Positions 9,359-30,524 of a stretch of DNA of 50,921 nt are shown in pieces. The translations under genes and the position numbers were made by a program. This stretch comes from an uncultured Pseudobdellovibrionaceae bacterium. GTDB taxonomy: Bacteria; Bdellovibrionota; Bdellovibrionia; Bdellovibrionales; JAGQZY01. Position 1 is the first letter of the stretch; every line of letters starts with the position of its first letter. The notes under the pieces are model-generated. The model did no database searches. It worked only from the letters and a program-made list of their open reading frames with translations, and was not told the origin of the DNA. The DNA is taken from positions 1 to 50,921 of the forward strand of contig CAYRIE010000001.1 of the NCBI GenBank assembly GCA_964424215.1, read 5' to 3'.

Positions 9359-9367
9359 GGAGGCCCC

Positions 9368-13496: not shown

Positions 13497-13505
13497 CCGC
13501 TTTTA

Positions 13506-13613: not shown

Positions 13614-13682
13614 CGTCTGACCTCCTTTGTATGGAACCGTTTCCTTTGTCTGGCCCTCCGCGCCCGTTCAGCCGTCATGTAT

Positions 13683-13701
13683 ATTTAAAGTTACTTTAAA
13701 T
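13683..13701. promoter_or_regulatory. Perfect 9-1-9 palindrome ATTTAAAGT-T-ACTTTAAAT, a candidate operator in the divergent intergenic region
   Basis: Read directly from the sequence. It lies between the minus-strand mini-ORF (start 13613) and the plus-strand HTH gene (start 13776). Confidence 0.35.
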
Positions 13702-13775
13702 GTCTTTGGAAAACCGGGCCGTGTTGCTAAAACGCAAATCTTGCTCATCTGTGCAACATACGAAGGAAATTCCGA

Positions 13776-14186: not shown

Positions 14187-14707
14187 TGACTGAAATGGAT
14201 GGTCTAACTTTAAAGGCGGGCTACAGGAAAGACTCCATGTCTTTAAGCGATGCCGATCGAATATTTTCTCAGTCGCTGTTCTGTAAGAAAATCTATCAGC
14301 TGATCCAGCTGGACAACTTCCAGCCCTCGGCCGCTTGGATCTCTAAGGCGGTGGGAGTTACCGAAAAAGAGGTGGCCGTCGCCCTGGACTCGCTGCTGAC
14401 CTTGGGGCTTATTGCCCGGACCAGTGCGGGCTATGAAGTGACGGATAAAGTATATGACAAGAAGAACTCTGAAGCCGAAGGCCATCTGGCCTTCACCGAG
14501 GAGCTTTTGAGCGAGCCGCTGAGCAAAGTGTCCGGTTTCGCTAACGGCAGTTTCGCTACCAACCTCGAAGCCATTTTGAAGTTTCACGATGCGATCAGAG
14601 AGGCCATTGACGGCTTGATGGAAGACTCTAAGAGCGCAGCTACAAAAGACTTCGTCTACAGCATGTCATTTTCTTCCTACAAAGACTCAAAGGAGAATCC
14701 GTCGTGA
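14186..14707 (+). CDS. DUF4423-like protein (resembles the C-terminal half of the TIGR02147 family)
   Basis: Winged-helix-like segment (AAWISKAVGVTEKEVAVALDSLLTLGLIARTSAGYEVTDK). It is translationally coupled to both neighbours. The assignment is from memory of the family pattern only. Confidence 0.45.
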   Translation: MTEMDGLTLKAGYRKDSMSLSDADRIFSQSLFCKKIYQLIQLDNFQPSAAWISKAVGVTEKEVAVALDSLLTLGLIARTSAGYEVTDKVYDKKNSEAEGHLAFTEELLSEPLSKVSGFANGSFATNLEAILKFHDAIREAIDGLMEDSKSAATKDFVYSMSFSSYKDSKENPS

Positions 14708-15318
14708 AGTACTTGATGGCCCTGTTTATGCTATTTTTTTCGGTGATAACTCTGGCCCAAATCAACACAGGTGGGCCAGACTTTCCCATATCTTTGACCG
14801 TCATCCAGGAAGGTTTTCCCAGCCTGAACTTTAAAGATCATCAAGTGGCGCCGGTGGTGATTCATGATGTAGTGGTGGATCAGTACAAAGTGGTCTCTAG
14901 CTCCGATCTGAACATCATCATTCAGACACTTAGACCCGAGTCCATGGCGGAGGTCTATGGGATGCTTTCAGATGCCAACCATTTTATTGAGACGGACTTA
15001 GAGCCCATCGATGGACCTCTTGAAGTTTACGGCTATCACTTGCCACCGGAAGACCCAGCGGAAAACATAGACACTCTCACCGCCTATGGCGATTTCGTTT
15101 TGAGAATGTTAAATTTCTATGAAATTTTCAGTCCGCTGATCGGCTACCCCATTGTTGTTCTTGCTCTGCCCAGAGAGGTCCAACTGTCTTGGATCTCTTT
15201 CCTGATAGCTCACAACGTTTTTGGAAGAAACACAGACGAGGTGATCTACGTTCCCGTCAAAAAACCTGAGAATCCTAAAGAGCAGCGAGCCAGCGGCTAC
15301 CCGCCAAAGGCCCAGTAG
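14704..15318 (+). CDS. Hypothetical secreted protein
   Basis: GTG start overlaps the upstream stop (GTGA). Signal peptide MKYLMALFMLFFSVITLAQ. No recognisable domain. Confidence 0.45.
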   Translation: MKYLMALFMLFFSVITLAQINTGGPDFPISLTVIQEGFPSLNFKDHQVAPVVIHDVVVDQYKVVSSSDLNIIIQTLRPESMAEVYGMLSDANHFIETDLEPIDGPLEVYGYHLPPEDPAENIDTLTAYGDFVLRMLNFYEIFSPLIGYPIVVLALPREVQLSWISFLIAHNVFGRNTDEVIYVPVKKPENPKEQRASGYPPKAQ

Positions 15319-15459
15319 ACGGAGTGCAATCTTTTAGGAAATGACCAAGTTCTTATCATCTTTCTGAGCGGCACTGGGTGAAGTGTTTCATTTGGGGCCG
15401 CTGAGGTCTAATTTTCCCCCACCTCCTTTAGTCTGAATCATATTTATCCGATTTTTAGC

Positions 15460-16299
15460 ATGAATCTGAAACTTTTTAAGGGTTTGAGGTACCTCATGCA
15501 AAAACAATTCTATGTGAGTCTAAAAGGTGAGCAGGCGGGACCCTTCAGCGTCGATGAGATAGTTGCCAAAGTAAGTCAGAAGGAGTTATCCGCTACCGAC
15601 TACTGCTATGACGACTCAAGTGAGGACTGGGTTCTCCTAGGGGAGCATCCCACCCTGTCAGATCATGTGAAAAAGGCTTCCGGAGATCTAGTACAGGTCA
15701 CAGAAGAGCTGGTGTCTCACGCATCGCCCCCTGGTGAGATCGAGTGGTTTGTTCTCAAAGGGGAGAACAAGTTTGGACCCTTCACCTTTAATGATCTTAT
15801 TAAAATGCTTCAAGAGAAGTCCATTTTCGAGTTCGACTATGTTTGGCACACAGACCTTACCACTTGGCAAAGAATTGCAGAGGTGGCCGAGTTTCGGCCG
15901 CATAACATTAAAAGGCTGAGAGATTCGGGCAAAGCCACTATTTCAGATATCTTCTTCCGACGCAGACACATGCGCGTTGACTGGGAATCCTCCATTATCA
16001 TCCATGACAATCGCCATTTATGGAGGGGTGAGAGCCTAGAGATCAGCGCAGGTGGCGCGGGAGTGGTGATTCAAAACGCCTCACTGAACCCGGGTCAGTC
16101 GCTTTACCTTCACTTTAAACCAGCAGACGGTGTGCCCGCCTTCAATGCGGTCTGTGAGATCGTCTCTAAGCAGTATGTGAAAGACGCCAAGGGGAGTGAT
16201 TCTCCCGTTAGATACGGTGTGAAATTCACTAAGATCAACACGACCACGCAGCGTGCACTTCAAGAGTACGCCGACAAGAAGGGAAGTGTGGCGGCTTAA
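15460..16299 (+). CDS. Tandem GYF_2 (DUF4339) domains + C-terminal PilZ domain protein (putative c-di-GMP receptor)
   Basis: Two GYF_2-like segments (FYVSLKGEQAGPFSVDEIV ... SEDWVLLGEHPTL, and WFVLKGENKFGPFTFNDLI ... TWQRIAEVAEF). PilZ motifs RRRHMR (15958-15975) and EISAGG (from 16039) are about 21 residues apart. An alternative ATG at 15496 (MQKQFYV) has a GAGG 8 nt upstream. Confidence 0.65.
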   Translation: MNLKLFKGLRYLMQKQFYVSLKGEQAGPFSVDEIVAKVSQKELSATDYCYDDSSEDWVLLGEHPTLSDHVKKASGDLVQVTEELVSHASPPGEIEWFVLKGENKFGPFTFNDLIKMLQEKSIFEFDYVWHTDLTTWQRIAEVAEFRPHNIKRLRDSGKATISDIFFRRRHMRVDWESSIIIHDNRHLWRGESLEISAGGAGVVIQNASLNPGQSLYLHFKPADGVPAFNAVCEIVSKQYVKDAKGSDSPVRYGVKFTKINTTTQRALQEYADKKGSVAA

Positions 16300-16372
16300 G
16301 ACCTGATCAGATTACTAGTTAGTCAGCTGTGCTCGAACCTATGCATGTACCCTCCAGAGCGCAACCAGCAAC

Positions 16373-17395
16373 ATGAAACGGAACGATATGGGTGCATGCA
16401 AATCAGAAAAACATTTTGAGCTATTGAGAGCGGGGCTATGGCTGTCCGTCATTTTCGTTCTGTCCTGCTCTACCGATCAGCAGTTTTCGATCATGCCTTC
16501 TCAGGAAGTTATCGAAACGAACCTAAGTTACAACAACGAAGTGGACGTGCTGTTTGTGGTTGATACTTCAGCCACCATGTCCGCCCATCAGGTGGATCTA
16601 TCAGAGCAGACACCTTACTTTCTGGAGGCTCTGATTGACACCAAACTGGACTTCCGGATCGCCGTGACCACTATGGACATGCGGCCCGCTGGAGAGCGCG
16701 GCCAGTTTGTCGGCTTCCCCAAAGTTCTGACAGCTCACACCCCTCAGCTTTACCGACTCCTTGAGGATCGAATCGCCCTTATGGGTGAGGGCGGTGGTTC
16801 TGTTGAGCGGGGGCTTGAGGCTATGCAAACGGCACTTGAGCGAGAAGCCGGCCTGGCTAGCAGTCAGTTTTTCAGGCCCGATGCACTCTTAGTCCTAGTG
16901 TTTCTGACCAACGAAGATGACACCAGTCCGGCCCTCGATTACGTGGCTCTGCTGGATGGCTTGAAGCCGCCCCTACCATCGGGGGAGCGCAGCTGGGTCA
17001 GTCACTTTATTGGTGTTCTTCCTGGTGGTTACAACTGCGCGGCCTTTGAGGGGCAGTATGTGCCCGGCTACAAGTATCTTCCACTTTCCCAAGCTTCAGG
17101 CGGGGTGATGGAAAACATATGCACGGCCGATCTAGGTGTGGCGGTGGGGTCCATCCGTAGCCGCGTCATTCAATATGTCACCGATATCCGTTTGGACCGG
17201 GTTCCTGATCTTAGCACCGTGCGGGTGAAGGTTAACGGTCAGGCTGTGCCCAAAAGCAGTGTCAATGGCTGGTCCTATGTCAGCGAGTTCAATTTGATTC
17301 GCTTTCACGGCTCGGCCATACCCAAGGCGGACGCACTTGTACAAATAGATTTTGATCCCATTGGAATTAAAGAAAGTCTTAAGAAGAGTTTTTAA
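16373..17395 (+). CDS. von Willebrand factor A-like lipoprotein
   Basis: Signal peptide with a lipobox-like VLSC. MIDAS-like DTSAT (D at 16562) in the context VDVLFVVDTSATMS. A later VLVFLTNEDD strand is typical of vWA folds. Confidence 0.55.
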   Translation: MKRNDMGACKSEKHFELLRAGLWLSVIFVLSCSTDQQFSIMPSQEVIETNLSYNNEVDVLFVVDTSATMSAHQVDLSEQTPYFLEALIDTKLDFRIAVTTMDMRPAGERGQFVGFPKVLTAHTPQLYRLLEDRIALMGEGGGSVERGLEAMQTALEREAGLASSQFFRPDALLVLVFLTNEDDTSPALDYVALLDGLKPPLPSGERSWVSHFIGVLPGGYNCAAFEGQYVPGYKYLPLSQASGGVMENICTADLGVAVGSIRSRVIQYVTDIRLDRVPDLSTVRVKVNGQAVPKSSVNGWSYVSEFNLIRFHGSAIPKADALVQIDFDPIGIKESLKKSF

Positions 17396-17417
17396 GGAAG
17401 GAATTTAGGGGGACACC

Positions 17418-18101
17418 ATGTTGCAGATGATTGTTGACTCAGGAGTGTTTGGTTACGTGATCGTAGGAATCGCGTTTGTTGCCGTGCTGCTCATAGCTGA
17501 GCGCAGTTACGTTCTTTTTAAGACGTACTCCATCCATGCGGACAGCTTTATGAAGAAGATTCAGGAGTTGATCGGTAAAGATCAGATTTCTGAAGCTGTT
17601 ACCTTGTGCGCCAAGGAAGACGAAAAACCCCTTCCCCACGTGATCAAAGCTGTCTTGGAGCGATCCGACCGTGATGATGAGTCCATCTATCAGGGTATGG
17701 ATATCGCCATGGCTGAGGTCATCCCCAAGCTTGGGAAAAGACTCAACTACCTTTCGCTGTTTGCCAACGTGTCCACTCTGTTCGGACTTTTAGGTACGAT
17801 CCAGGGTTTGATCATGTCCTTTGCGGCCGTGGCCCAAGCAGATGCTTCCCAAAAGAACGAGCTGCTGGCCCAGGGTATTTCCATTGCGATGTACACGACG
17901 GCCATGGGTCTGATCGTGGCGATCCCCTCTCTTGTGGTCTACACCTTTTTGCATAACAAACAGTCGCGCATGCTCGAGGAGATTATCGAGCACGCAGCTA
18001 AAGTTGTCGACACTCTAACAACTCGGCACTATGTGGCCCCGCAAAGCAGTGCAGCAGGTGGTGCTCCTCAAAAGGCCCCTCCTGTCCCACGGGCATCTTA
18101 A
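17418..18101 (+). CDS. MotA/TolQ/ExbB-family proton channel (AglR-like)
   Basis: Three TM helices and the family core (LFGLLGTIQGLIMSFAAV ... GISIAMYTTAMGLIVAIPSLVVYTFL). Confidence 0.85.
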   Translation: MLQMIVDSGVFGYVIVGIAFVAVLLIAERSYVLFKTYSIHADSFMKKIQELIGKDQISEAVTLCAKEDEKPLPHVIKAVLERSDRDDESIYQGMDIAMAEVIPKLGKRLNYLSLFANVSTLFGLLGTIQGLIMSFAAVAQADASQKNELLAQGISIAMYTTAMGLIVAIPSLVVYTFLHNKQSRMLEEIIEHAAKVVDTLTTRHYVAPQSSAAGGAPQKAPPVPRAS

Positions 18102-18127
18102 CCACTTTCCAATCGACGGAGTAGAAC

Positions 18128-18688
18128 GTGAGAAAGTCTAGGATTCAGCGCGAAGTGAAAGGGGAGGTTCAGAACGATCTGGATCTCACCCCGACGTTGT
18201 CCCTCATGATTGTGCTTATTCCGATGCTTTTGCTGACTGCTGCTTTCATCAAGATCAAAGTGATCGAGGCACCTCTTCCTCAGTTTATCGCCGAGGCTAT
18301 CGCCGAGAACGCTTCAGGAGAGGAGCTTATCACTCTGGATGTAGATGTGCTCCAAGACCGCAGTGTGCGTATTAACCTGAGCGTGAACGGGAAAGTCTCC
18401 AAAAACACCGTCGGGCCTCAGCGCAGTGAGGGAGCGGCTACTGTGAACCTGGATCAGCTCCGTTCAGAGCTAATCAGGATCAAGCGCGCCCATCCCACGG
18501 TCTTTTCGATGTCCGTTAACCCTGCACCAGCGGTGACCTATGACGAAATCGTAAAGGTGCTCGATGTAGCTCGAACTACGGGATCTAAAAGCGAAACTTT
18601 TGACATTATCAACAGAGAAACTGGCGAGAAAAACACCACGGAACTTATGTTTCCGGAGGTCATTTTTGGCAATTTGGTAGAGGGCTGA
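18128..18688 (+). CDS. ExbD/TolR-family protein, paralogue 1 (TM Asp replaced by Ser)
   Basis: ExbD-like N-terminus DLDLTPTLSLMIVLIPMLLL plus a periplasmic domain. The position aligned by eye with TolR D23 / ExbD D25 is Ser (codon 18200-18202). GTG start. Confidence 0.75.
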   Translation: MRKSRIQREVKGEVQNDLDLTPTLSLMIVLIPMLLLTAAFIKIKVIEAPLPQFIAEAIAENASGEELITLDVDVLQDRSVRINLSVNGKVSKNTVGPQRSEGAATVNLDQLRSELIRIKRAHPTVFSMSVNPAPAVTYDEIVKVLDVARTTGSKSETFDIINRETGEKNTTELMFPEVIFGNLVEG

Positions 18689-18689
18689 A

Positions 18690-19205
18690 ATGGGACGTTT
18701 ATCCGAAACGATGAAACGCTTTAATAAACAGGACAGCAGCGTGGGGGTGCAGCTCACCTCTATGGTGGACGTATTGACCATCCTGCTTGTTTTCCTGCTT
18801 AAAAGCTTCTCCTCAAGTGCAGTGGTTCCGCCTATGGGAGATGGAGTGCGTCTGCCCGATTCTACCGCGATGGTGGAGCCCATTGAAGCCCTCAAGTTGG
18901 TCGTCTCTCCCCTAGGGGTTTTCGTCAACGATGAGATGGTTATCACGTTTCAGGACTCCAAGATTTTGGAGACGGACCTCTCCGGTCAGGATCCAGATTT
19001 GATAGTCAAGCTTCATGAGAAGATGGAATCTGAAGCTAAGAGAGCTGAAGAGATCGCCAAGGTGAATCCAACCTTAGATTTTAAGGGCGAGGTTCTGATG
19101 CAGGCAGATAGAAGCCTCTCTTATGAGGTCTTAAGAAAGATTATGTACACATCCTCGTTAGCTGGTTACGGCGATTTGAAATTGGCTACGATGTTGGCGG
19201 AGTGA
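18690..19205 (+). CDS. ExbD/TolR-family protein, paralogue 2 (TM Asp retained)
   Basis: VQLTSMVDVLTILLVFLL with the conserved Asp (codon 18768-18770). It starts 1 nt after the previous stop. Confidence 0.8.
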   Translation: MGRLSETMKRFNKQDSSVGVQLTSMVDVLTILLVFLLKSFSSSAVVPPMGDGVRLPDSTAMVEPIEALKLVVSPLGVFVNDEMVITFQDSKILETDLSGQDPDLIVKLHEKMESEAKRAEEIAKVNPTLDFKGEVLMQADRSLSYEVLRKIMYTSSLAGYGDLKLATMLAE

Positions 19206-22132
19206 GAATGCACAGCAGAGTTTGGACCCTCATTTTAGTACTATTTCTCGGGGGAGCCGTCACGGCTCAGGCGCCGCTGGAATCCATCCGGCTCACTCCC
19301 GGAGATGAGATGAGCAACGAGAAAAAGTCGCTGCAAGCCGAACTGCTGATTAGAAAATCTGAGGATCAAGCGCTCGCTCAGATTAAAGATTTGCTCAGAA
19401 AGCATCGCGGAGAGGCTCTTGAAGTGGAACTTTTGTTCCGTTTAGCGGAGCTGCACATGCGCCGGGCTAAGACCGAAAGATTTTTTGAAATCCATCGGCA
19501 CAGCGATACAGTGACCAAGCTCGCACCTCAACATGTTAAAAAGGCCTCTCAGAAGCGAGAAATCCAGCAGGCGATCAGCACCTATGACAACATCCGCCGC
19601 CGGTTCCCTAAGTACCAACAAATGGACTTAGTGCTTTTCAACAGCGGCTTTGCTCGGCAGCTGATCAACGACGACCGCTCTGCTGAAAAGCTCTACTGGG
19701 AGATTATCGCACAGCACCCCAACTCTTACCTTGTGCCCGATGCCCACCTAGCTATCGGCGAGATCAATTTCGAGCGGCGTGGCTATCAAAAGGCGCTGGA
19801 GCATTTTCTAAAGATCGAGGACTATCCCGCATCCAGAGCTTACTCCTACGGGATGTATAAAGCCTCCTGGGCCTACTACAACCTTCAGAGGTCCGTAGAT
19901 GCTATGAAAAAGCTTGAGCAAGTGGTCACCTACGGTCAGTACGTCAAAGACAACAATCTCGATAGCCGGTTGGATTTGCGTGCAGAGGCTCTTAAGGATT
20001 TAGCGCTTTTCTATAGCGACGTTATGAAGGCTAAAGGCGCTGTGGCCTATTTTATGAAGTGGTCCAGGGAGCTGAGCGCCTGGCCTCAGGTTCACATGCT
20101 CACAGAAATCTACAAGCGTCACGGTAAGCACGAGGACATTGAAGTGGTCCTGCTGGACGTTATCAATATGATTCCCGATAAGAGTGCCGTGATTGCAGCC
20201 TATGATGAGCTGCTCATGACCCATGAGCGCGCCCTCAACAGAGACAAGGCTGTGGAGCGCCTCAACCTTTTTGTCAGATACTGTAAGGGACTGGCCCCGC
20301 GCGGGAAAATGCCCGCCGAAGAAGCTGTGGAGCTTTTCGACAGCTGTAAAGGCAAGGTTGTGGAGAGCTCCCACCACCTTGCATCTAAATGGCATGGGCT
20401 ATGGATTAAAAACAACAAGCATGAACTCTTCCAAAAGAGCGCCTCGCTGGCCTATTTGGCTTACTTAGAGTTTGCGGATCCGGTGACCGAGGAAATGGCT
20501 CAGGTGCGCTTTAACTACGGTGAGCTCCTCTTTAACGGCGAAGAGTTTCGTAAGGCCTCAGGCAGTTACGCCCTTGTAAGAACCGCTAAGCCCTCTCAGC
20601 AGCTGCTTCACGACGGGAACTACGCTGCCATTGTTAGCCTTGAGCGCGCCACAGGCGATACTTGGAACGATAAGGACGAGCAGCACTTTAAAAAGCTCGT
20701 GACCTCCTACCTTGAGGATTCACCTAAGGGAAAGTACAGCCTGGATCTGCGGTTTAAAGTGGCCTTTATCGCCTATCAAAAAGGTCGCTACGATGAAGCT
20801 ATGCCTCAACTGAAAGAGCTGGGCTGGGCGCATAAGGGGACTGAGAACGGAGAGCGTGCGCAGGATCTTTATCTGGATATTCTGAACATCAAAAAAAGGT
20901 ACGGAGATTTGAAGCAAGCCGCTGCGGAAGTAGGGGAGATGACCCGATCTTCAGAGCGCAAGGCCAAGGTCAAAAACATCTATCAAGAAGCTTACTTCGC
21001 CGAAGTGCAGACCTCAGTAGAAGCGGGTGCTGGCATCCAGGCAGCCCAAAGCTTTTTGGCCTTCTCTAAAGAGAACCCTAAATCTCCTTTGGCCTCTAAA
21101 GCCTGGTGGAATGCCACGCAAATTCTCTTTGACGCTGAAGAGTACAAAGAGGGATCCCAGAAGTGTCTGGAGTTTGCCGCAGCCTACCCTAAGGACGATC
21201 AGGCCAAAGAGTGCCTCGTCCAGGCAGCTTTGCATTTTGAAAAAATGGGTCATCTTGATCAAGCCGCACACGCACTGGAGATGGGTGCAAAGCTGAGCCA
21301 GGGAGCTGAGGCGCAAAAGACCTTAGAGCTTGCGGCTGACTTTTGGGCTCTCGGCGGAGCTGATAGCAAGGCCGATGGTCTTTACGATAAACTCTTTTCA
21401 TCATCTGCGGCGGCCGATCAGGACAGAGTTTTAACCAAATGGCACCGTTTGGCTCAGAGCAGAGGCATGAAGGCTCGGGAAAGGCTTTTGCGTGAGAGAG
21501 TTTTGGCCCTACCCAAGTCGGCCTACAAGTTTGAGCTCCTTGCCGAACAGGTCGAAAGTAGCTTTTCCAAGGGCGACCTCCCTGGTGCCTTTAGGGCGGC
21601 TAGCGGAATTGTGGGCAGCTCAGCAGCGCCAAGTCACCTCAAAGCCAAGGCCAGGTACTTTCAAGCACGAGTGCTCCAGGACGAGTTTGAAAAGCAGAGT
21701 GTGAAGGCGCGGCCCGAAAGGTTAGCTCTGGTTTTAGGCATCAAAACGGAAAAGCTGGAAAAGGCTCAGCAGGCTTTTCAGGCCACAATTTCCTACCGCG
21801 ACTCCGAGTATTCTTTAAAAGCCCTTGAAGGCCTAGCTCAGATCTACCTGACCTATGCCCAAGACATGCGAACGATCAGTGCGCCCCAGGAGCTGAGCGC
21901 TCAAGAGCAGGCTCAGTTCCGCGCGGAACTTGAGAACTTGGCTATCCCCATGGAGGAAAAGGGCATCGAAGGTGTAGAGCAGGCACTCCGTTTTGCCAAA
22001 GACGTTAAACTTCGCGACGATTCGGCCCACAGGATTCAAACTTGGCTGGACCAACTGAACCACCAACCAGCCGGATTAGATGTAAGATCTTTCCAGCCTC
22101 AGCCCTATCTACCTCGGGGAGGTGATGCATGA
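19202..22132 (+). CDS. Large secreted TPR-repeat protein (GltD/AgmU-like by position and architecture)
   Basis: 976 aa. Signal peptide (VLFLGGAVTAQA) followed by TPR-like repeats throughout. The start overlaps the ExbD stop. Same position as gltD after the aglRQS-type genes. Confidence 0.6.
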   Translation: MRMHSRVWTLILVLFLGGAVTAQAPLESIRLTPGDEMSNEKKSLQAELLIRKSEDQALAQIKDLLRKHRGEALEVELLFRLAELHMRRAKTERFFEIHRHSDTVTKLAPQHVKKASQKREIQQAISTYDNIRRRFPKYQQMDLVLFNSGFARQLINDDRSAEKLYWEIIAQHPNSYLVPDAHLAIGEINFERRGYQKALEHFLKIEDYPASRAYSYGMYKASWAYYNLQRSVDAMKKLEQVVTYGQYVKDNNLDSRLDLRAEALKDLALFYSDVMKAKGAVAYFMKWSRELSAWPQVHMLTEIYKRHGKHEDIEVVLLDVINMIPDKSAVIAAYDELLMTHERALNRDKAVERLNLFVRYCKGLAPRGKMPAEEAVELFDSCKGKVVESSHHLASKWHGLWIKNNKHELFQKSASLAYLAYLEFADPVTEEMAQVRFNYGELLFNGEEFRKASGSYALVRTAKPSQQLLHDGNYAAIVSLERATGDTWNDKDEQHFKKLVTSYLEDSPKGKYSLDLRFKVAFIAYQKGRYDEAMPQLKELGWAHKGTENGERAQDLYLDILNIKKRYGDLKQAAAEVGEMTRSSERKAKVKNIYQEAYFAEVQTSVEAGAGIQAAQSFLAFSKENPKSPLASKAWWNATQILFDAEEYKEGSQKCLEFAAAYPKDDQAKECLVQAALHFEKMGHLDQAAHALEMGAKLSQGAEAQKTLELAADFWALGGADSKADGLYDKLFSSSAAADQDRVLTKWHRLAQSRGMKARERLLRERVLALPKSAYKFELLAEQVESSFSKGDLPGAFRAASGIVGSSAAPSHLKAKARYFQARVLQDEFEKQSVKARPERLALVLGIKTEKLEKAQQAFQATISYRDSEYSLKALEGLAQIYLTYAQDMRTISAPQELSAQEQAQFRAELENLAIPMEEKGIEGVEQALRFAKDVKLRDDSAHRIQTWLDQLNHQPAGLDVRSFQPQPYLPRGGDA

Positions 22133-23037
22133 ACCTACTCCGTGTTTGGCTTATCAGCTTGGCTCTTGCAGGATGTGCCTCAACGGGTCCTAAAGCGAAG
22201 TCCGGCTCGGCCAAGAGCGTGCCCTTCGTTCAGGGGGTTCACGGCACTGAAGCTCACTCTGTTTCGGGTACGTGCACAGTGAACCGAGAAGCTTGGCTTT
22301 CCATGACGTGGAAGCGTCTTAACGATGTAGCCAACAAGTGTGTTCAGGAGCAGAAGTGGTCGACAGTGAAAGATCTGGGTCACTTTCTTGCTGAAAAGTT
22401 CTATCACAGCCCCTGGGGACTTTATTATCTGTCCTTATACTACGATCAGGCCAAGGACGCCGATAGATCCCTATGGTTCATTGAGGCCGCTTTGGCCAAA
22501 ACAGCTGTGGACCTGGGTCTTCTGAACTACCAAAAAGCTAAAGTTCTTCTGAGTGTGGGTGATTTGCCTGGAGCCTACCAGTTTTTTGAAAAAGCAGTTC
22601 GGCTAGACGACAACTTGGTGGACGCCCACATTTACTTGGGACAGCAAGCTTATCTGGACCGAGACTTGGGGCGCGCCGAAAAGCATTTGGCCAAAGCCTT
22701 CGGAAAAAACAAACTCCAGGAGGTCGTGCACTTTCAGATGCTCGCCCAGTCCTACGAAGCGCGGAAAAAGTGGGCCGAGTCAGTGGACGTTCTGGAGCGA
22801 GGGTTAAGGGCTCATAAGGACAGCTTGGAGCTCAAACTCCAGCGGGCCTCTGTGCTCGAGCAGGGGTTGAAGGATCTCCGAGCCGCACTGAAAGCCTACG
22901 AGGATGTTCTCAAGCTTCAGGCGAAAAGATCCCAAAATTCATCGCCTGTGAAAGATAAGATCGATCAAATTAAAAAGTTACTCGAGCAGAACGACCAAAA
23001 CGAACGAGCACCAGCGACTCGAGAGGAAAGGGCCTAA
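22129..23037 (+). CDS. TPR-repeat lipoprotein (GltE-like by position)
   Basis: ATGA overlap with the upstream gene. Lipobox LALAGC. TPR-like repeats. Confidence 0.55.
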   Translation: MNLLRVWLISLALAGCASTGPKAKSGSAKSVPFVQGVHGTEAHSVSGTCTVNREAWLSMTWKRLNDVANKCVQEQKWSTVKDLGHFLAEKFYHSPWGLYYLSLYYDQAKDADRSLWFIEAALAKTAVDLGLLNYQKAKVLLSVGDLPGAYQFFEKAVRLDDNLVDAHIYLGQQAYLDRDLGRAEKHLAKAFGKNKLQEVVHFQMLAQSYEARKKWAESVDVLERGLRAHKDSLELKLQRASVLEQGLKDLRAALKAYEDVLKLQAKRSQNSSPVKDKIDQIKKLLEQNDQNERAPATREERA

Positions 23038-23039
23038 GG

Positions 23040-23279
23040 ATGATTAAATTCATTGTGACTTTGGCTTTGAGCTTAGCTTGCGCCACCGTATTCGCCCAAT
23101 CGGGGCGTAGCAAAAAGGTGCAAGAGGTGAATTTTGACGGGGTCGACATCGACGGGAAGGTGAAGAACCCCGACGGGGCCTACCTCCTGCAAAAAAAGGG
23201 AGTGGACTTTCTGCCCCTTTATAAAGTGAAGACCGAATTTGATAACAACATCAAAGAGTCCATCGAGTACTTGAGGTGA
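23040..23279 (+). CDS. Small secreted protein, 79 aa (position-equivalent to gltF)
   Basis: Signal peptide MIKFIVTLALSLACATVFAQ. It lies 2 nt after the previous stop and 4 nt before the next start. The assignment rests on gene order only. Confidence 0.4.
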   Translation: MIKFIVTLALSLACATVFAQSGRSKKVQEVNFDGVDIDGKVKNPDGAYLLQKKGVDFLPLYKVKTEFDNNIKESIEYLR

Positions 23280-23283
23280 CCAA

Positions 23284-24792
23284 ATGAGTCGGCGTGAGTT
23301 GCTGGTCGAGCATTATTACAACAAGAGATTTCTGAAGTCTCGGCGGTTTAAGTCCAATCAGAGCCAAGTCATCTTTGGCTCTTCGCCCTCGGCGGACATT
23401 CGGCTGATGGGTCAGGACGTTAATGGCATTCACGCTCTGGTGGAGCATGTGGACGACACATGGCTCCTGATGGACCTTGCCAGTCCCACGGGCACCCGTG
23501 TGGACGGTGAGAACATCATCGAAAAAACCATTCAGGAGCCAACGTCCGTTAGAATCGGAAGCCATGAGATCCGCCTGATTCCCATTCACATTGAATCCAC
23601 GCTCTTTAAGCCGGAGGAGACTCCGGCTGCCCAGGCAGGGGAGACTCTGCACCAAGTGGTCGTTCGGCGAAACGGTGAGATTTTGCGAACGGCCGTTCTT
23701 AAGCCCCAGGAGAGCTTCATCTGGGGCGCTCAGGACATGATTTTTGCGCCTCCCACCACAAGAGAGTGGGTCGTAAGTAGGTTCGATGGACTCAGTGTGC
23801 AGCAGCGCCTAACCTCAGCTCCCCAGGTGGAGCTTGAAAAGGTCAAACTCCAACTCACTGAAAGCGAAAAGATCTCCTTGGTCGGTGTGGGGACCTTTGC
23901 ACTGCTATGCTTTCTTTTGTTGGTACTAAAGCCAGCTACGGAGGCAAAGCCCCTTCAGGAGCAGTCCAACGTCTATGCCAAGATGGTGCTAGATCCTGAG
24001 GTGTTGAAAGAAAAACGAAACGACGCTCAACAAAACCGTAGAAAACTGGTTCAACAGAAAGTAGCAAAAACCGCTCAGCAGAAGGCTGGACCCACCAGCA
24101 AAATACCAAGTAAAGCCGCACCCTCATCGGGTGCGCCCACAGCAAGAGTGCAGGATGGACCCAAGGTTCTGACCAACATCCGCACCGCCCAGCTCGGACA
24201 GATCATCGGGCGCATCAGCCAAAGAGCTGACAGTTCACGAGGGCTCGCATCCGCCCAAGGGCCCAACGCACCCACCTCATCTAGCCGGCTCCGAGGCAGC
24301 GGCCTCCCTTCAGTGGAGGGCAGCGGGGTGAAGCGTGGAAATGGAACAGCAGCCTCCAGTCCGTATCAAATTGCGGCAGTGGGGACCTCCGGTAGAGGAG
24401 GGGGAGTTTCAGATTTTAAAGGGGTAGGCAGTCTCTCCTCAGGCTCTGTGGGAACGGCTGACGTGGGAATTATGGAGGATGAGGCTGAGGTGGATGGCGG
24501 CTTAGACCGCGAAGTTATCGCCAACTATATTAAAAGTCAGCTCGGACAAATCCGATACTGCTATGAACGACAACTGAGTGCGAATCCTGATCTTTATGGC
24601 AAGGTTCAAATTCAGTTTACGATTGCTGCCCATGGGGGTGTGTCAGCACACTCCATTGGACAGACAACATTAAAAGACGCCACGGTAGAGGGATGTATTT
24701 TGCGGCGTGTGGCTCAGTGGAAGTTTCCGGAACCGAAAGGCGGGACGCAGGTCAAAGTCACCTACCCCTTCCTGTTCAAGAGTACTAACTGA
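23284..24792 (+). CDS. FHA domain - TM - AgmX/PglI-type TonB-C-like domain protein (GltG-like)
   Basis: N-terminal FHA-like segment (VIFGSSPSADIRLMGQDVNGIHALVEH ... WLLMDLASPTGTRVDGENI). TM helix (ISLVGVGTFALLCFLLLVL) and a low-complexity linker. C-terminal domain: GGLDREVIANYIKSQLGQIRYCYERQL ... GKVQIQFTI ... VEGCILRRVAQWKFPEP ... VTYPFLFK. Confidence 0.65.
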   Translation: MSRRELLVEHYYNKRFLKSRRFKSNQSQVIFGSSPSADIRLMGQDVNGIHALVEHVDDTWLLMDLASPTGTRVDGENIIEKTIQEPTSVRIGSHEIRLIPIHIESTLFKPEETPAAQAGETLHQVVVRRNGEILRTAVLKPQESFIWGAQDMIFAPPTTREWVVSRFDGLSVQQRLTSAPQVELEKVKLQLTESEKISLVGVGTFALLCFLLLVLKPATEAKPLQEQSNVYAKMVLDPEVLKEKRNDAQQNRRKLVQQKVAKTAQQKAGPTSKIPSKAAPSSGAPTARVQDGPKVLTNIRTAQLGQIIGRISQRADSSRGLASAQGPNAPTSSSRLRGSGLPSVEGSGVKRGNGTAASSPYQIAAVGTSGRGGGVSDFKGVGSLSSGSVGTADVGIMEDEAEVDGGLDREVIANYIKSQLGQIRYCYERQLSANPDLYGKVQIQFTIAAHGGVSAHSIGQTTLKDATVEGCILRRVAQWKFPEPKGGTQVKVTYPFLFKSTN

Positions 24793-24825
24793 CGCTAGAG
24801 CCACTCACCCCAAAAGGAGCACGTT

Positions 24826-25638
24826 ATGCTAAAATTTCTCTACCCCGCGCTGGGCCAACTAGGGTCCGCGGCCGCCGTCGCCCTGTTCGCTTTAAGTCTG
24901 TCGGCTCAATCTAAAGCACCTGCCAAAGCACCCGCCAAAGGAGCGAATGCGCCGGCGGGGGATTATGAAAAGCTCGATGTGAGTGACCTTGAGCAAAGGT
25001 ACTGGACCCCCAGAGACACGGAGTTCAACGTCGTGCAAAACCGCACCTACTCCAAGGTCAAGCGGCTGGGCGTGGGCTTAAGCTTGGGGACGGTCATCAC
25101 AGACACCTATGTGGACACTACTGACATGACCCTTACGCTCAACTACTTTCCAACCGAGCGCTACGGTATAGAAGTGAACTACACGGACCACAGTGGAAAG
25201 CCCTCAAAGGCTGTCAGTGACTTTATTAACTCACATGGCACCATACCCAACCACAACCTGATCCAACAATCCATTGGAGCCAGCTTTAACTGGGTTCCTC
25301 TCTACGCCAAGATGAGCTTTCTTGAGAAACGAATTTTGTACTACGACATGTACATTTCCCCCGGGATTCAGTACGTGACCTACAAGCAGCATTACCGCGA
25401 CCAAGTCAACACGGCACTGAACCGGGAAAAAGAGAACTCAGTTCTGGGCTTCTCTCTGGACGTCTCTCAGGTGGTGTTTCTCAATCGAAATTTCGCCTTC
25501 CGACTCGACTTTAAGAACCGTTGGTACAAAAACGACGTCTTAAGGCACAGCACTGGGGAGACCGATAGCTCGGTTGTGATCAACTCCAACTCATTGCTCT
25601 TTGGGTTCACCTACCTTTTCGGAGGCGGAGGACAGTGA
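24826..25638 (+). CDS. Outer-membrane beta-barrel protein (GltA/GltB/NfsA-like candidate)
   Basis: Signal peptide. Alternating hydrophobic beta-strand pattern. C-terminal beta-signal-like LLFGFTYLF. 270 aa, similar in size to GltA/GltB. Confidence 0.55.
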   Translation: MLKFLYPALGQLGSAAAVALFALSLSAQSKAPAKAPAKGANAPAGDYEKLDVSDLEQRYWTPRDTEFNVVQNRTYSKVKRLGVGLSLGTVITDTYVDTTDMTLTLNYFPTERYGIEVNYTDHSGKPSKAVSDFINSHGTIPNHNLIQQSIGASFNWVPLYAKMSFLEKRILYYDMYISPGIQYVTYKQHYRDQVNTALNREKENSVLGFSLDVSQVVFLNRNFAFRLDFKNRWYKNDVLRHSTGETDSSVVINSNSLLFGFTYLFGGGGQ

Positions 25639-28064
25639 TGCGCAGCTCGAGAATTCTACCCTTACTGCTTTTTTTGCTGGTGCTTGCCGCCGCACCTGCT
25701 GAGGCTCGCTTTGTCGATCCTGCAGGTGAGGTGGAATTCACCTCCGATCCGGTGCCCCCGGCTCCGCCGACCAGCTCCTGGTCGAAGCTGAAGTCTTGGA
25801 CGAAGGAAAAAATTGAAACTGTCAAAGCGGAGGCGCGCAGCCGCGGCTGGCTGCCCTCTGAAGAAGAGCGCAATGAAGCTCTGGCCAAAAAAGTTCAAAA
25901 AGAGGCCGGTGTTGAGCCCGTGGTCACAGACGAGCTGACGGCGATCGCTGAGAGCTACTCGCCTGAACAGGTGGCTGAGGCCACCGAGCGGGTCCGCAGC
26001 TCTTCAATCCTTACGGAGCAAGGTAAGGCAAGGCCTCACGGGCCGGAGCTGGAAGCTAGTGAAACCGGAGTGCCGCGCTACCAAGTCCGCGTTCCAGCGG
26101 GTGAGAAGGTGCACCTTCCCCGATTGAATGTGGGTAGAGAGCCCAAACTGAGCCGTAAAGACTTAAAGGTCCCAAGCTTTGATATGGCTCGCATCACCAA
26201 AGACATGTCGCTTAAGATTCACCAAGATCGGGAGCTGAGCGCACAGGACGAGAAGTTTTTAGCCAACATGACCCTGCAGGCCCATCGACCCATCAAGACC
26301 TACGAGGTTGAGATTCTCACCAACAAGCAGATCGATGATCTAAAAGTGAGGGTGGCTGAAATTAAGGCCGCTATTGAGCCTTTGGCGGCTCTTGAACTTA
26401 AAGAATTTAACGAATTCACTCAAGACGACAAAGACATGCTCAGTGCCCTGATTCTGATTCAGAACCACAACCAGTGCTCAGCTGCCGTCTCGCTGCTTCA
26501 CAGGCTGACCAAGACAGATCACGCCGGCGAGGCTTATTATCATCTGTCCATGTGCCAGAAGAGTCTGGATCTAAAGTCTGAGGCCGCCTTCAGCGCCGTT
26601 GAGGTGATGAATCGAGGCCAAGCTGAATATGTGGCCGACGTTGTGGGTGCTCTTGGAAGCGATATTGCGTACGAACATCTGGAGGCTTACTCGCGTGGCC
26701 TTTTAAGGTCCATCACTCAGCCCGCACTTAAAATTATGGAAGATCCCAAGCGCGCCGCTGACGTTGCTATGGTTCTTACTGAGTACGGTGCGGCCACGGG
26801 CAGGTACAAACTGGCGCGGGACTGGGGCGCTAAGGTCCCCTCGGCTCACCCCAAATACTTTCAAGCACTCTATATGAAGGCCGTGGCTGAATACGCTTTG
26901 GGAAGTGAAAAGCAAAGTCTATCGACCCAAGAAAAGTTAATGGAGCTGCTTAAGGCCTCCACGGATCAAGACGTTCGGACTTTGGCTGCTGTGAATTTAG
27001 GGCGGCTTCAGTTCCAAAGCGGCAAATTCCAGGCTGCTCAAAAGAGCCTCCATGCCGTGGATAAAAACCATCCGCTTTGGATCCAGTCCCTACTTGAAAT
27101 GGGCTGGAGCCAACTGCAGTACGGTGACTTTGCTGGTGCCATCGGAAATATGTATTCGATCCACTCGCCCTTTTTTCAGTACGTCTACAAGCCGGAGTCC
27201 TACGTTGTCCGCACCATCGGCTACCTGAACCTGTGCCAGTACGCTGACGCTTACCGAACGCTTTCCACCCTGGAGAAGGACTATCGCCCAGCGCTGGCAA
27301 AAATAGAGAGCTATATCAAGGAAAACCGGCATGCCAAAAACTTCTATCAGACGGTGAGAACCTATATGCGGTCTAAGTCCACCAGCGACATCGATGGGCT
27401 TCCGCCCCAAGTGATTCGCGAGATGGCGCGGCATAAAGACTTTTTGAACCTTCAAGGAGCATTCAACCGCAACGTGGACGAAAAGCAGAAGGTTCAAAAC
27501 TTAGATGGCGCCATTCGCAGAAATATGAATAGGGCCAATCACCTCATCAGCTCTACTCAGGAGCGGCTAGCTCGCCTAGATCAAGAGTTAAAATCCCTGG
27601 GCACAGCTCAGAGCAAGTCGGTGCGAACCGAGCTACAGGTTCAGGCAGAGATTCAGTCTGAGCAGCAGCGTCTGGCAAGCTACAAATACATCCTAGAAAT
27701 TCATAAGCGCACGCGCACCTTGCTGCCCTCTTACGCTAGGGCCGCCAGCGTAAGAACCGCGCGCGTTTTGGACCGTACTCGCGCGGACATTGAGAAAAAG
27801 TTGGCCGCTCGCCTTTACCGGATGCGAGACGGACTGGCACGCATTTTAGAAGCCAACGAGTTTTTGCGCTACGAGGTGTTCTCTGGCAGTGGAGAGAACA
27901 TTCGGTTCGAACTGGCCGGTGGTGAGAAGGCGGGCAAACGGGTTCCCGCAAGTGTCATGCCCAGGTCTAAGGAGCTGCGGTGGTCCTTTGATGGCGAATA
28001 CTGGGCAGATGAAATCGGCCACTACCGCTCCTCACTGAAAAGCAATTGTCCGGAAAGAAATTAG
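25635..28064 (+). CDS. Large secreted TPR-like / helical repeat protein (GltC/NfsC-like candidate)
   Basis: 809 aa. Signal peptide (LLLFLLVLAAAPAEA), helical repeat content, and a coiled-coil-like C-terminal third. The start overlaps the OMP stop. Confidence 0.45.
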   Translation: MMRSSRILPLLLFLLVLAAAPAEARFVDPAGEVEFTSDPVPPAPPTSSWSKLKSWTKEKIETVKAEARSRGWLPSEEERNEALAKKVQKEAGVEPVVTDELTAIAESYSPEQVAEATERVRSSSILTEQGKARPHGPELEASETGVPRYQVRVPAGEKVHLPRLNVGREPKLSRKDLKVPSFDMARITKDMSLKIHQDRELSAQDEKFLANMTLQAHRPIKTYEVEILTNKQIDDLKVRVAEIKAAIEPLAALELKEFNEFTQDDKDMLSALILIQNHNQCSAAVSLLHRLTKTDHAGEAYYHLSMCQKSLDLKSEAAFSAVEVMNRGQAEYVADVVGALGSDIAYEHLEAYSRGLLRSITQPALKIMEDPKRAADVAMVLTEYGAATGRYKLARDWGAKVPSAHPKYFQALYMKAVAEYALGSEKQSLSTQEKLMELLKASTDQDVRTLAAVNLGRLQFQSGKFQAAQKSLHAVDKNHPLWIQSLLEMGWSQLQYGDFAGAIGNMYSIHSPFFQYVYKPESYVVRTIGYLNLCQYADAYRTLSTLEKDYRPALAKIESYIKENRHAKNFYQTVRTYMRSKSTSDIDGLPPQVIREMARHKDFLNLQGAFNRNVDEKQKVQNLDGAIRRNMNRANHLISSTQERLARLDQELKSLGTAQSKSVRTELQVQAEIQSEQQRLASYKYILEIHKRTRTLLPSYARAASVRTARVLDRTRADIEKKLAARLYRMRDGLARILEANEFLRYEVFSGSGENIRFELAGGEKAGKRVPASVMPRSKELRWSFDGEYWADEIGHYRSSLKSNCPERN

Positions 28065-28080
28065 ATTAAGGGAGAGTTTC

Positions 28081-28716
28081 ATGAAATTTAGACTACTAAC
28101 CATCGCTGTGTTCGCTGTAGCTGCCTCCGTGGCCTGGGCCAAAACTGAAATTGCGGCCGAGGTGGAGCGCCTGAAAGCTAATGCCGAAAACAGCAATCAC
28201 AACTTAAAGCAATACGAAGAGAACCTGGAAGTCGTTAAGCATAACGTCAAAGAGGTTCGCCAGGCGCTAAAAGGAGTGGAAGAGTCCAGAGCCCAGGTGG
28301 CCAGTAACATCCGGTCCGTGGAAGAGAACGAGCAGCTCATTATGAAAACGATTGCTGATCTGAACACCGAGATTTCGGCGGAACGCTCGGTGATCAATGA
28401 AGATCAGAAAAAGATGGCTGAGATCGAAAAGATTCTTGAGCGCCTGCGCGCTAACATTCAGAAACGCGAAGACAATATCAAAGTCTACCAGGCCCGCACT
28501 GAGGAGCTTAAGCAGATGAAATCTCAGCTTGCTGAGCGCAACCGGTCCGTTCAGGAGCTGACGGCTAGCCTCAATGACAAGAATAAAGCTCTTCTGGAAG
28601 AGCAAAAACTCTGGGCCGAAAAAGAAAAAGAGTATGCTGCCGAAGTTTCCAAATGGCGCAAGCACCGGGCGGAATCTCAGCAGATGCACAAAGATTTTGA
28701 TCGGCTGAAGAAGTAG
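28081..28716 (+). CDS. Secreted coiled-coil protein, 211 aa
   Basis: Signal peptide (LLTIAVFAVAASVAWA), then continuous heptad-like E/K/Q/L-rich sequence. It is the last gene of the same-strand cluster. Confidence 0.5.
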   Translation: MKFRLLTIAVFAVAASVAWAKTEIAAEVERLKANAENSNHNLKQYEENLEVVKHNVKEVRQALKGVEESRAQVASNIRSVEENEQLIMKTIADLNTEISAERSVINEDQKKMAEIEKILERLRANIQKREDNIKVYQARTEELKQMKSQLAERNRSVQELTASLNDKNKALLEEQKLWAEKEKEYAAEVSKWRKHRAESQQMHKDFDRLKK

Positions 28717-28718
28717 TT

Positions 28719-30524
28719 TTAGCCGCTCGTGGTGGAGGTGCTGGGTGAGCCAACTAAGGTCTGCCCAGCAAGGCCCTGGGCTCGGTACAGGTCTGCATAG
28801 ATCCCACCGCGCGCAAGAAGTTCAGTGTGGGAGCCTTGTTCCTTTAGCTCCCCATCCTTGAGCACTAATATCTTATCGCAGTGAAGAATCGTCGAGAGTC
28901 GGTGCGCAATGATCAGGCTGGTCCGATCCTTGGTCACCTCTTTTGTGGCAAACTGAATGGCGGCCTCACTCTCTGAATCGATGTTGGCCGTTGCCTCATC
29001 TAATATCAAGATCTCAGGATCATAAGCCAGCACCCGAGCGAAAGCGAGAAGCTGGCGCTCGCCGTGACTAAAGTTAGAGCCCTTCTCTTCGACTTTAGCT
29101 CCAAGGCCGCCCCTGCGGTCCATAAGGCGGGTGGCATGGGCGCGCTCTAGTGCTTCCTGGATCCTCTCCGTTGAAATCGCAGGATTGTTCAGCGAGATGT
29201 TCTCACCTAAGGTGCCTCGAAAAAGGAAGTTATCCTGCAAGACCACCCCAATCCTAGCGCGCACAAAGCGGCGCGGGATGGATTTAAGAGGGGTTCCGTC
29301 AAAGTAGATCTCGCCCTCATTGTAGTCATAAAGACGCTGAAGCAGGGAGATAATGCTCGTTTTGCCACTGCCTGTTCGGCCCACGAGCGCAATGCTCTGC
29401 CCTGGCTGAACTTCAAAGGAGAGATCCTTAAGGACCGGCTCCGAGTAGCCTGGATAGGTAAAGCCGACCCGGTCAAAGACGATGTGACCTTTAAGCTCCT
29501 TGGGGCGCTCCGGAAGAGCGGGCGGGGCTTCAGGCTTTTCATCTAACAGAGTGAAGATCCTTTCAGCGCCCGTAAGCGAGTTCTGAAACTGCTGAAACCT
29601 TTCCAGAATGATGCGCATGGGATGCACAAAGTCCTGAACGTGAAGGATAAAGGCCACCAAAAGACCCAGCGCCAGACCTTCGGTGCGGTTCAAATAGCCG
29701 CCGTAGAGCAGGGCTGCAATGATTGCGGCAGCGTTGAAAAACGCTACCGACGGCCATAGAAGTGCAAAGAGTTTGACGGTGCGCCACTGAGCCAGCTTGT
29801 AGTCCTCCGAGCGAGATTCAAAGCGGGCGATCTGTTTGGGCACTTGAGAGTAGGCCTGAATGATCTTCATGCCGTTGATGTTTTCGGCCACAAAGGCGTT
29901 AATCCTTGCCAGGTGACGTTTGGTCTCTCGCATGGCCAGCCGGATGAGGTGGCTTAAGAAAAGACCTGCGCCCACCATCAGAGGCATGCTGATCATGGCC
30001 ACCGCAGTCAGCTTGGGTGATATCAGCAGCATAGCTATCAAAATAAAGATCAAGCTCAGAAGCTGAGCGAACACTTCGATAAGTCCCTGGGTGAAGAGCT
30101 CACCTAAGGACTCCACGTCGTTCGTCATCCGGGTCACAATGCGCCCAGATGGGTTCCGGTCAAAGTAGCTCATCGGCAAACTTTGCAGGTGAACGATAAG
30201 TTGGTGGCGAAGATCGTGGAGCACTCGGTTGCCCAGCTTAAAGAACAGATAGCGATGGGCAAAAAGCAAAAACGCTTTTAGAACTTCCAGCGCAAAGTAA
30301 ATGCCAGCTAGCACCAGCACGGTCCGGTAGCTGTTTTGTAAGAATCCATCATCAATAGCTCGGCCCACGATGTTCGGCAGCAGCCGCCCCACAAGCGCAA
30401 AGGTAACGATGGCTAGGACGGTTCCCCACAGGAGCCAGCGGTAGCGAGCCATAAAGGGCCACAGCTTCATGAACAGCCGGGGTAGGGAAATGCGGTTGGT
30501 CACCTCATCGTCGTAGATACTCAC
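28719..30524 (-). CDS. ABC exporter, fused TMD-NBD half-transporter (MdlB/MsbA-like)
   Basis: Six-TM exporter domain, then Walker A GRTGSGKTS, signature FSHGERQLLAFARVL, Walker B ILILDEATANID. Confidence 0.85.
   Translation of the reverse strand: MSIYDDEVTNRISLPRLFMKLWPFMARYRWLLWGTVLAIVTFALVGRLLPNIVGRAIDDGFLQNSYRTVLVLAGIYFALEVLKAFLLFAHRYLFFKLGNRVLHDLRHQLIVHLQSLPMSYFDRNPSGRIVTRMTNDVESLGELFTQGLIEVFAQLLSLIFILIAMLLISPKLTAVAMISMPLMVGAGLFLSHLIRLAMRETKRHLARINAFVAENINGMKIIQAYSQVPKQIARFESRSEDYKLAQWRTVKLFALLWPSVAFFNAAAIIAALLYGGYLNRTEGLALGLLVAFILHVQDFVHPMRIILERFQQFQNSLTGAERIFTLLDEKPEAPPALPERPKELKGHIVFDRVGFTYPGYSEPVLKDLSFEVQPGQSIALVGRTGSGKTSIISLLQRLYDYNEGEIYFDGTPLKSIPRRFVRARIGVVLQDNFLFRGTLGENISLNNPAISTERIQEALERAHATRLMDRRGGLGAKVEEKGSNFSHGERQLLAFARVLAYDPEILILDEATANIDSESEAAIQFATKEVTKDRTSLIIAHRLSTILHCDKILVLKDGELKEQGSHTELLARGGIYADLYRAQGLAGQTLVGSPSTSTTSG

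Follow-up and report, generated by a model that had tools for sequence, protein, structure and literature searches.

A probable Agl-Glt-type trans-envelope machine with a Bd1473-Bd1483-like layout in an uncultured Pseudobdellovibrionaceae bacterium

What kind of machine is encoded by the tight run of same-strand genes at 15460-28716 of contig CAYRIE010000001.1, from an uncultured Pseudobdellovibrionaceae bacterium (assembly GCA_964424215.1)? The whole stretch that was analysed, positions 1 to 50,921 of the forward strand, is called the window below. The cluster is likely to encode an Agl-Glt-type machine spanning the cell envelope, of the kind known as the expanded core complex and with a layout like that of the Bd1473-Bd1483 operon of Bdellovibrio bacteriovorus HD100; its most probable function is to power gliding on surfaces. 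Domain identities, gene order and conservation are observed directly; from these, and by analogy with known systems, we infer all the interactions between the products and the motility output.

The list of open reading frames (ORFs) of the window gives twelve consecutive ORFs on the + strand in this region, spaced by 73, 22, 26, 1, -4, -4, 2, 4, 33, -4 and 16 nucleotides (nt). The initial annotation of this DNA had described a thirteen-gene cluster with tiny gaps and 4-nt overlaps. The contiguity on one strand stands, but the count is twelve, as is the number of products named in that annotation. The largest gap between ORFs is only 73 nt and thus leaves no room for a thirteenth gene. The boundaries of the cluster are sound. 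A gap of 141 nt separates it from three upstream + strand genes, and a convergent pair of ABC exporter genes starts 2 nt past the final stop codon. The GC content of the window is uniform. A scan for promoter and terminator consensus sites gave a number of sites no higher than, or lower than, that in shuffled sequence, and did not reveal the operon boundaries.

The third to fifth genes, which are adjacent, encode a stator, and their matches all lie above the Pfam cut-offs. Gene 3 (17418..18101, +) encodes an AglR-like predicted proton channel of 227 amino acids (aa) from the TolQ/ExbB/MotA family (Pfam MotA_ExbB, 3.8e-26); its sequence matches in the PDB are ExbB and TolQ (2.5e-11 to 1e-8). 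It is followed by a first TolR/ExbD-like subunit in the AglQ position (gene 4; 18128..18688, +; 186 aa; Pfam ExbD, 1.5e-10) and a second one in the AglS position (gene 5; 18690..19205, +; 171 aa; Pfam ExbD, 3.1e-12). These two subunits differ in the transmembrane aspartate. In gene 4 this column is variable over 44 homologues (Asp in 19, Ala in 18 and Ser in 7), with Ser in the window. In gene 5 the Asp is kept in the window and is invariant in 46/46 homologues. With this asymmetry, the TolR pair fits the AglQ-AglS heterodimer proposed in the Myxococcus xanthus model.

The proteins predicted beyond the inner membrane connect this stator to the Glt families. Gene 9 (23284..24792, +; 502 aa) encodes a candidate GltG-like force transducer, which consists of a cytoplasmic FHA domain (Pfam FHA, 2.1e-7), one membrane helix seen in the sequence, a long linker of low complexity and a TonB-C-like domain of the AgmX/PglI type. 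The latter reaches 114.3 bits against a cut-off of 40 with the NCBIfam model myxo_SS_tail. The GltG equivalog model matches at 4.7e-58 and 197 bits, below its cut-off of 650, which makes the protein a homologue and not an equivalog. Weak TonB_C matches (Pfam, 0.0066; TIGR01352, 3.2e-4) are both below cut-off, and the PDB sequence search returned only insignificant FHA matches. Directly downstream lies the gene of an outer-membrane beta-barrel of the GltA/GltB type (gene 10; 24826..25638, +; 270 aa), with a signal peptide and an NCBIfam OMP_myx_plus match of 73.7 bits against a cut-off of 60. A GltC-like periplasmic TPR connector, again with a signal peptide, is predicted from gene 11 (25635..28064, +; 809 aa; NCBIfam GltC, 1.9e-30 and 106 bits, below the cut-off of 450). 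The small secreted protein of gene 8 (23040..23279, +; 79 aa) matches the NCBIfam model CglF, which is GltF (7e-9 and 35.6 bits, below the cut-off of 90). It carries a signal peptide and the motif KxQEVxFDGxDxDG, conserved in 62 homologues.

Between the stator and these genes, two TPR proteins are encoded by genes overlapping by 4 nt. Gene 6 (19202..22132, +; 976 aa) stands in the GltD position and encodes a large secreted protein with a signal peptide and TPR matches to YbgF/CpoB (2.4e-21) and BamD. Gene 7 (22129..23037, +; 302 aa) stands in the GltE position and encodes a lipoprotein (lipobox LAGC) with matches to TPR families. Glt-specific models were looked for with an NCBIfam scan to E<=10, which gave only YbgF, BamD and other generic TPR models for both. 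The fit to GltD and GltE covers signal peptide, lipobox, TPR content, size and position, and the assignment leans on the published table of HD100 genes. The cluster ends with gene 12 (28081..28716, +), a conserved last gene for a secreted coiled-coil protein with generic coiled-coil matches only. Its homologues, with a median of 213 aa, share a signal peptide and a conserved N-terminus.

Two further genes precede the stator. The second gene (16373..17395, +) encodes a lipoprotein with a vWA/MIDAS domain, a candidate surface adhesin. Its recorded product, P0241 (335 aa), fits a start at the second Met, at 16388, and the lipobox VLSC was read from the sequence. The Pfam scan gave no match. In NCBIfam, the Bdellovibrio MIDAS adhesin model (5.1e-15) and CglD (1.4e-6) match below their cut-offs, and the CglB model is not among the matches. 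An AlphaFold model built with 38 homologues has a pLDDT score (predicted local distance difference test) of 84 and 165 PDB matches at E<=1e-3. It resembles the vWA domains of ITIH1, the pilus adhesin SpaC, integrin beta subunits and ANTXR2, and this structure search of the predicted model confirms the vWA fold. The MIDAS Asp is invariant among the homologues, and the window sequence reads DTSAT.

The first gene (15496..16299, +) encodes a cytoplasmic GYF-GYF-PilZ protein of 267 aa. Its ORF opens at 15460 (15460-16299), but the start is most likely 15496, since GAGG lies 6 nt upstream of it and all homologues align from that Met. Two copies of GYF_2 (6.7e-21) and one PilZ domain (2.8e-13) are found above the Pfam cut-offs. 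The AlphaFold model (pLDDT 85.6) shows two small GYF-like modules and a PilZ barrel, and its closest solved structures are Bacillus subtilis MotI/DgrA, a Pseudomonas aeruginosa PilZ domain and Escherichia coli YcgR. The modelled fold fits PilZ structures bound to cyclic di-GMP (c-di-GMP). The RxxxR motif is invariant in 57/57 homologues. The second motif is ExSxxG (16075-16098, residues 194-201), as opposed to the (D/N)xSxxG of c-di-GMP-binding PilZ receptors; the Glu is found in 51 of the 57 homologues, and the Ser and Gly are conserved. The putative ligand may be c-di-GMP or cyclic GMP-AMP (cGAMP).

Gene by gene, the Pfam and NCBIfam matches, the lipobox and signal readings and the vWA structure match agree with the product descriptions of the initial annotation. 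The families whose profiles it had proposed to search (MotA_ExbB, ExbD, FHA, AgmX/PglI, OMP_myx_plus and TPR) were all matched.

Is this arrangement peculiar to one contig? In the protein collection, the GltG-like protein has 902 homologues. After the window's own copy, the next best are 63% and 48% identical, and the named ones are almost all from metagenome-assembled genomes of Bdellovibrionales/Bdellovibrionaceae. A scan of species-representative genomes gave 80 loci, with Bdellovibrionota or Pseudobdellovibrionaceae in nearly all of the titles, and the window proteins were compared with them by tblastn. Synteny is strongly conserved across these Bdellovibrionota loci, so that the survey proposed in the initial annotation finds the same order again, with TPR, barrel and GltC genes as partners. 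Chance is far from sufficient to explain the arrangement, as dozens of independent Bdellovibrionota genomes share this gene order.

Layouts were counted in those 51 loci in which 8.2 kb or more of sequence precedes the GltG-like gene. Twelve of them have PilZ, vWA, stator and D-E-F-G exactly as in the window, with barrel, GltC and coiled coil next where the contig extends. In 14/51 the layout is that of the window without the vWA gene, and in one locus the vWA gene, stator and D-E-F-G are present with the PilZ gene not matched. The PilZ gene stands directly before the GltD-like gene, with no stator between them, in 13/51 loci, among them L028, in which the stator lies upstream of PilZ; in one more (L019), PilZ and vWA precede the GltD-like gene without a stator. 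The remaining layout, found in 10/51 loci, is a five-gene cassette of PilZ, ExbB, ExbD, ExbD and a GltG-like gene. The GYF-GYF-PilZ gene is thus present in 50/51 loci and the vWA lipoprotein gene in 14/51. Downstream, the barrel and GltC are each found in 41/41 loci, and 38 of these have the coiled-coil gene after GltC. In 56/57 loci the GltD-like gene is separate from the GltE-like one, and in one (L041:5995-9726) the two form a single fused ORF. Across the phylum, PilZ, GltD-E-F-G, barrel, GltC and coiled coil are the constant genes; the vWA lipoprotein and the encoding of the stator within the cluster are optional.

In the cassette loci (L068, at 7088-11482, L036, L045, L048, L052, L062, L065, L069, L075 and L081), the GYF-GYF-PilZ, ExbB, ExbD, ExbD and GltG-like genes stand alone, without TPR, barrel and GltC genes. 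The flanks of the L068 cassette are unrelated and encode a PBP transpeptidase, a pseudouridine synthase and an ankyrin protein. This cassette may correspond to the 'TonB/Agl' unit of the Bd0417-0420 type in HD100. In the stator-less loci (L009, L011, L029, L030, L038, L040, L041, L043, L050, L051, L066 and L076; about 5.0-15 kb in each), ExbB/ExbD genes were not found within 10 kb upstream, so the motor must come from elsewhere in the genome. L009 lies on the complete chromosome OZ241329.1.

The closest described system is found in B. bacteriovorus HD100. Luciano et al. 2011 (PMC3169522) introduced a core complex of seven genes (AglRQS, GltD, E, G and C), which forms one operon in Gammaproteobacteria and Geobacter, and an expanded core complex with the addition of GltF and GltA/B, present in four copies in B. 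bacteriovorus without GltH, I, J and K. In the supplement of that paper, Bd1474-Bd1481 have the same gene order as the window and products of near-identical size. These are, with the window lengths in second place, Bd1481 (AglR, 236 and 227 aa), Bd1480 (AglQ, 185 and 186 aa), Bd1479 (AglS, 167 and 171 aa), Bd1478 (GltD, 1237 aa and 976 + 302 aa), Bd1477 (GltF, 82 and 79 aa), Bd1476 (GltG, 488 and 502 aa), Bd1475 (GltB-type barrel, 254 and 270 aa) and Bd1474 (GltC, 713 and 809 aa). As in the window, each HD100 cluster has a single barrel gene according to the same supplement. The HD100 operon also has a PilZ gene (Bd1482) and, in Bd1483, a MIDAS lipoprotein of the gliding cluster. Bd1482, at the 5' end of the operon, was identified as a PilZ protein by Hobley et al. 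2012 and was proposed to receive the DgcA signal for gliding. This 'tonB/agl' gliding operon is usually taken to span Bd1473-Bd1483. With GltC assigned to Bd1474, one gene is left, and Bd1473 would then be the counterpart of the coiled-coil gene, judging by locus-tag numbering only.

Two differences are apparent. In the window, the GltD-like and GltE-like products come from two genes, whereas the 1237-aa Bd1478 looks like a fusion. The order of locus tags in HD100 is apparently vWA-PilZ-AglR, as against PilZ-vWA-AglR in the window and in 12 related loci. The orthology to Bd1473-1483 rests on the published table, and the protein searches gave only uncultured Bdellovibrionota among the matches listed. 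The identity of GltG to its nearest genome relatives is only about 45%, which indicates a divergent lineage. The initial annotation had considered that the compact layout, together with the PilZ, vWA and coiled-coil accessory genes, could be new. This is not upheld: Bd1474-Bd1481 share the order, Bd1482 and Bd1483 have been described, and the full layout recurs in 12/51 loci. Since neither the compact layout nor the two upstream accessory genes are new to the literature, the window adds a divergent member to a known type of operon and is not a new system.

The likeness extends to the gliding machinery of M. xanthus. There, too, a TolQ/TolR-type motor has two TolR paralogues, and GltG is built of FHA, membrane helix, linker and TonB-C-like domain, as in gene 9. 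GltF, GltC, a GltA/B-type barrel and large TPR proteins are shared as well. The M. xanthus adhesin, CglB, is a vWA lipoprotein, and a vWA lipoprotein is also encoded in the window; profile scans found no CglB itself in the cluster or the window. The genes of the cluster form one operon, whereas those of M. xanthus are distributed over three clusters (G1, G2 and M1), and a soluble GYF-GYF-PilZ protein is found in place of GltJ, the membrane-anchored ZnR-GYF protein of M. xanthus. The seven-gene core complex of Gammaproteobacteria, Geobacter and Fibrobacter (PMC3169522) is likewise a single operon with AglRQS and GltD, E, G and C, but it lacks GltF and the GltA/B barrel and occurs in non-gliders. 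The window has both and thus belongs with the expanded core complex.

The assignment to the Agl-Glt type follows from the stator above the Pfam cut-offs, the Glt-specific profiles (AgmX/PglI and OMP_myx_plus above cut-off; GltG, GltC and CglF) and the synteny. For gliding itself, the HD100 operon is the guide. HD100 glides, its bd1480 is surface-induced, and the expression of this gene depends on the cGAMP/c-di-GMP synthase Bd0367. Transposon insertions in Bd1483 or aglR (Bd1481) lower predation on biofilms, which was interpreted as a gliding defect.

Several points weigh against this reading. A clean deletion of bd1483 gave no predation defect. The four paralogous HD100 clusters are differently regulated, and Luciano et al. 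(PMC3169522) favoured Bd0828-0838 over Bd1473-1483 for gliding. One barrel is encoded here, with no second copy in the window, whereas M. xanthus needs both GltA and GltB. Profile scans of the cluster and the window found no GltH, GltI, GltJ, GltK or AglZ. These components and CglB are also known to be absent from Bdellovibrio. All the Glt equivalog scores lie below the curated NCBI cut-offs and point to distant homologues. The initial annotation had read the order D-E-F-G, then barrel, then TPR protein; profiles support GltF, GltG, the barrel and GltC, while the GltD and GltE labels come from position, size and TPR content alone. With Glu in place of Asp/Asn in the second PilZ motif, nucleotide binding is putative, and for this organism the motility reading is a prediction from the sequence.

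Might the same machinery serve a task other than gliding, such as prey entry and exit, envelope remodelling or the transport of surface material, in the way that Nfs serves spore-coat assembly? We regard this as rather unlikely. The Nfs and Glt-like paralogous clusters of M. xanthus share the core-complex origin and the dependence on an AglRQS-type motor, but their function is not motility: the Glt-like paralogues do not replace motility and Nfs serves sporulation. The four HD100 sets have distinct expression, with Bd0412-0420 induced during predation, and a motility paralogue is not separable from a non-motility one by sequence alone. However, no sequence feature ties the window cluster to sporulation. 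The matching HD100 operon is the surface-induced one in which transposon hits impair biofilm predation, and a vWA adhesin within the operon would fit traction on a substratum.

A Tol-Pal-like system for envelope integrity or cell division is very improbable. The stator does score best against TolQ/TolR models, and the 976-aa protein has the YbgF/CpoB match given above. However, the profile scans found no TolB beta-propeller, Pal/OmpA-like lipoprotein or TolA family in the cluster, and the Tol scores are far below their equivalog cut-offs, whereas the Glt-specific domain models pass theirs. TonB-ExbB-ExbD energy transduction for nutrient uptake through the outer membrane, to which an ExbB/ExbD-family stator and the weak TonB_C match of gene 9 might point, is effectively refuted, in line with the initial annotation, which had favoured a trans-envelope Agl-Glt/Nfs-type motor as the probable reading: the 51-kb window holds no siderophore gene and, among ORFs of at least 150 aa, no Plug domain or TonB-dependent receptor, the partners in related loci are always TPR, barrel and GltC genes, and the TonB-like gene 9 carries a cytoplasmic FHA domain and an AgmX/PglI-specific C-terminus.

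How would such an Agl-Glt machine work? By analogy with the structural model of M. xanthus, a pentamer of the AglR-like, TolQ-like channel would enclose a heterodimer of the two TolR-like proteins, only one of which keeps the proton-carrying Asp, and proton flow would be turned into movement. This movement would be picked up by the membrane helix of the GltG-like protein, whose long linker would cross the peptidoglycan and whose TonB-C-like domain would dock on a periplasmic TPR scaffold of the GltD-, GltE- and GltF-like proteins. The GltC-like protein would couple this scaffold to the outer-membrane barrel, and the surface adhesin is likely to be the vWA/MIDAS lipoprotein, in the part that CglB plays in M. 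xanthus. The cytoplasmic GYF-GYF-PilZ protein would be the likely cyclic-dinucleotide input, engaging or disengaging the motor.

MotI and YcgR are c-di-GMP receptors acting on flagellar motors with MotA-family stators. These proteins, which brake or declutch such stators, are the closest structures to the PilZ domain of gene 1, and gene 1 resembles them in context, being encoded beside a MotA/TolQ-family channel. It differs at the N-terminus, with two GYF_2 domains instead of a YcgR-N/PilZN domain, and in the ExSxxG form of its second binding motif, unlike YcgR and MotI/DgrA. The PilZ gene heads four layouts, including the minimal cassette and the stator-less clusters, which suggests a modular motor common to several envelope machines. 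Bdellovibrionota are without GltJ, GltI and AglZ, and it is tentatively proposed that the GYF-GYF-PilZ protein is an integral, near-universal part of their Agl-Glt machines and might act as a c-di-GMP/cGAMP clutch or adaptor on the AglR-type stator or on the FHA domain of GltG, assuming the cytoplasmic switch role of the GltJ GYF domain of Myxococcus. Although doubtful, this is the most interesting open reading, since the gene is near-universal at the head of these four layouts, one of which is a bare PilZ-stator-GltG cassette.

In the PDB, the gene 1 family profile has a single sequence match, the GYF domain of GltJ (AgmX), 7z3c (E 2.5e-4), and this structure is also matched by the GYF part of the AlphaFold model. 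The match, which is to the first GYF domain, is not taken as a sign of a specific relationship to GltJ, as bacterial GYF domains are widespread and 7z3c is the sole GYF structure among the PDB matches. Since cGAMP affects the transcript levels of gliding genes in HD100, a riboswitch for c-di-GMP or cGAMP was sought upstream of the operon; Rfam gave no match at gathering scores in the window, nor at E<=1 in 13400-17500.

The genes around the cluster are of another kind. Upstream, at 13776-15318 (+), a small HTH_3 gene, a DUF4423 gene (1-nt overlap) and a gene for a 204-aa protein with a predicted signal peptide were considered as operon members and rejected; none of them adjoins the cluster in any related locus. 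Downstream, two tandem ABC exporter genes (28719-32317, -; ABC_membrane + ABC_tran) have 2 nt between the convergent stops. Homologues of these exporters lie downstream of the cluster in 14/41 related loci, and this neighbourhood probably reflects lineage synteny more than function. The surroundings are otherwise housekeeping: Mla, purH, phosphonate ABC transport, nuo, UDP-glucose dehydrogenase, MgtE and RecO. At 47777-50916 (-), a FecR-domain gene lies immediately upstream of the gene of a 706-aa TPR protein with a weak Omp85-family match at its C-terminus. For two large ORFs, at 39511-41601 (-, 696 aa) and 41526-42611 (+, 361 aa), the Pfam scan gave no family at E<=1e-4; they overlap, and one of them may not be a real gene.

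With this cluster, the Bdellovibrio-type Agl-Glt operon gains a divergent and well-resolved example; the understanding of gliding motors is unchanged by it. In the literature searched here, the Bd1482-type PilZ proteins and the terminal coiled-coil gene have one mention or none. The survey of constant and optional genes across Bdellovibrionota is useful for picking targets for genetics in B. bacteriovorus.

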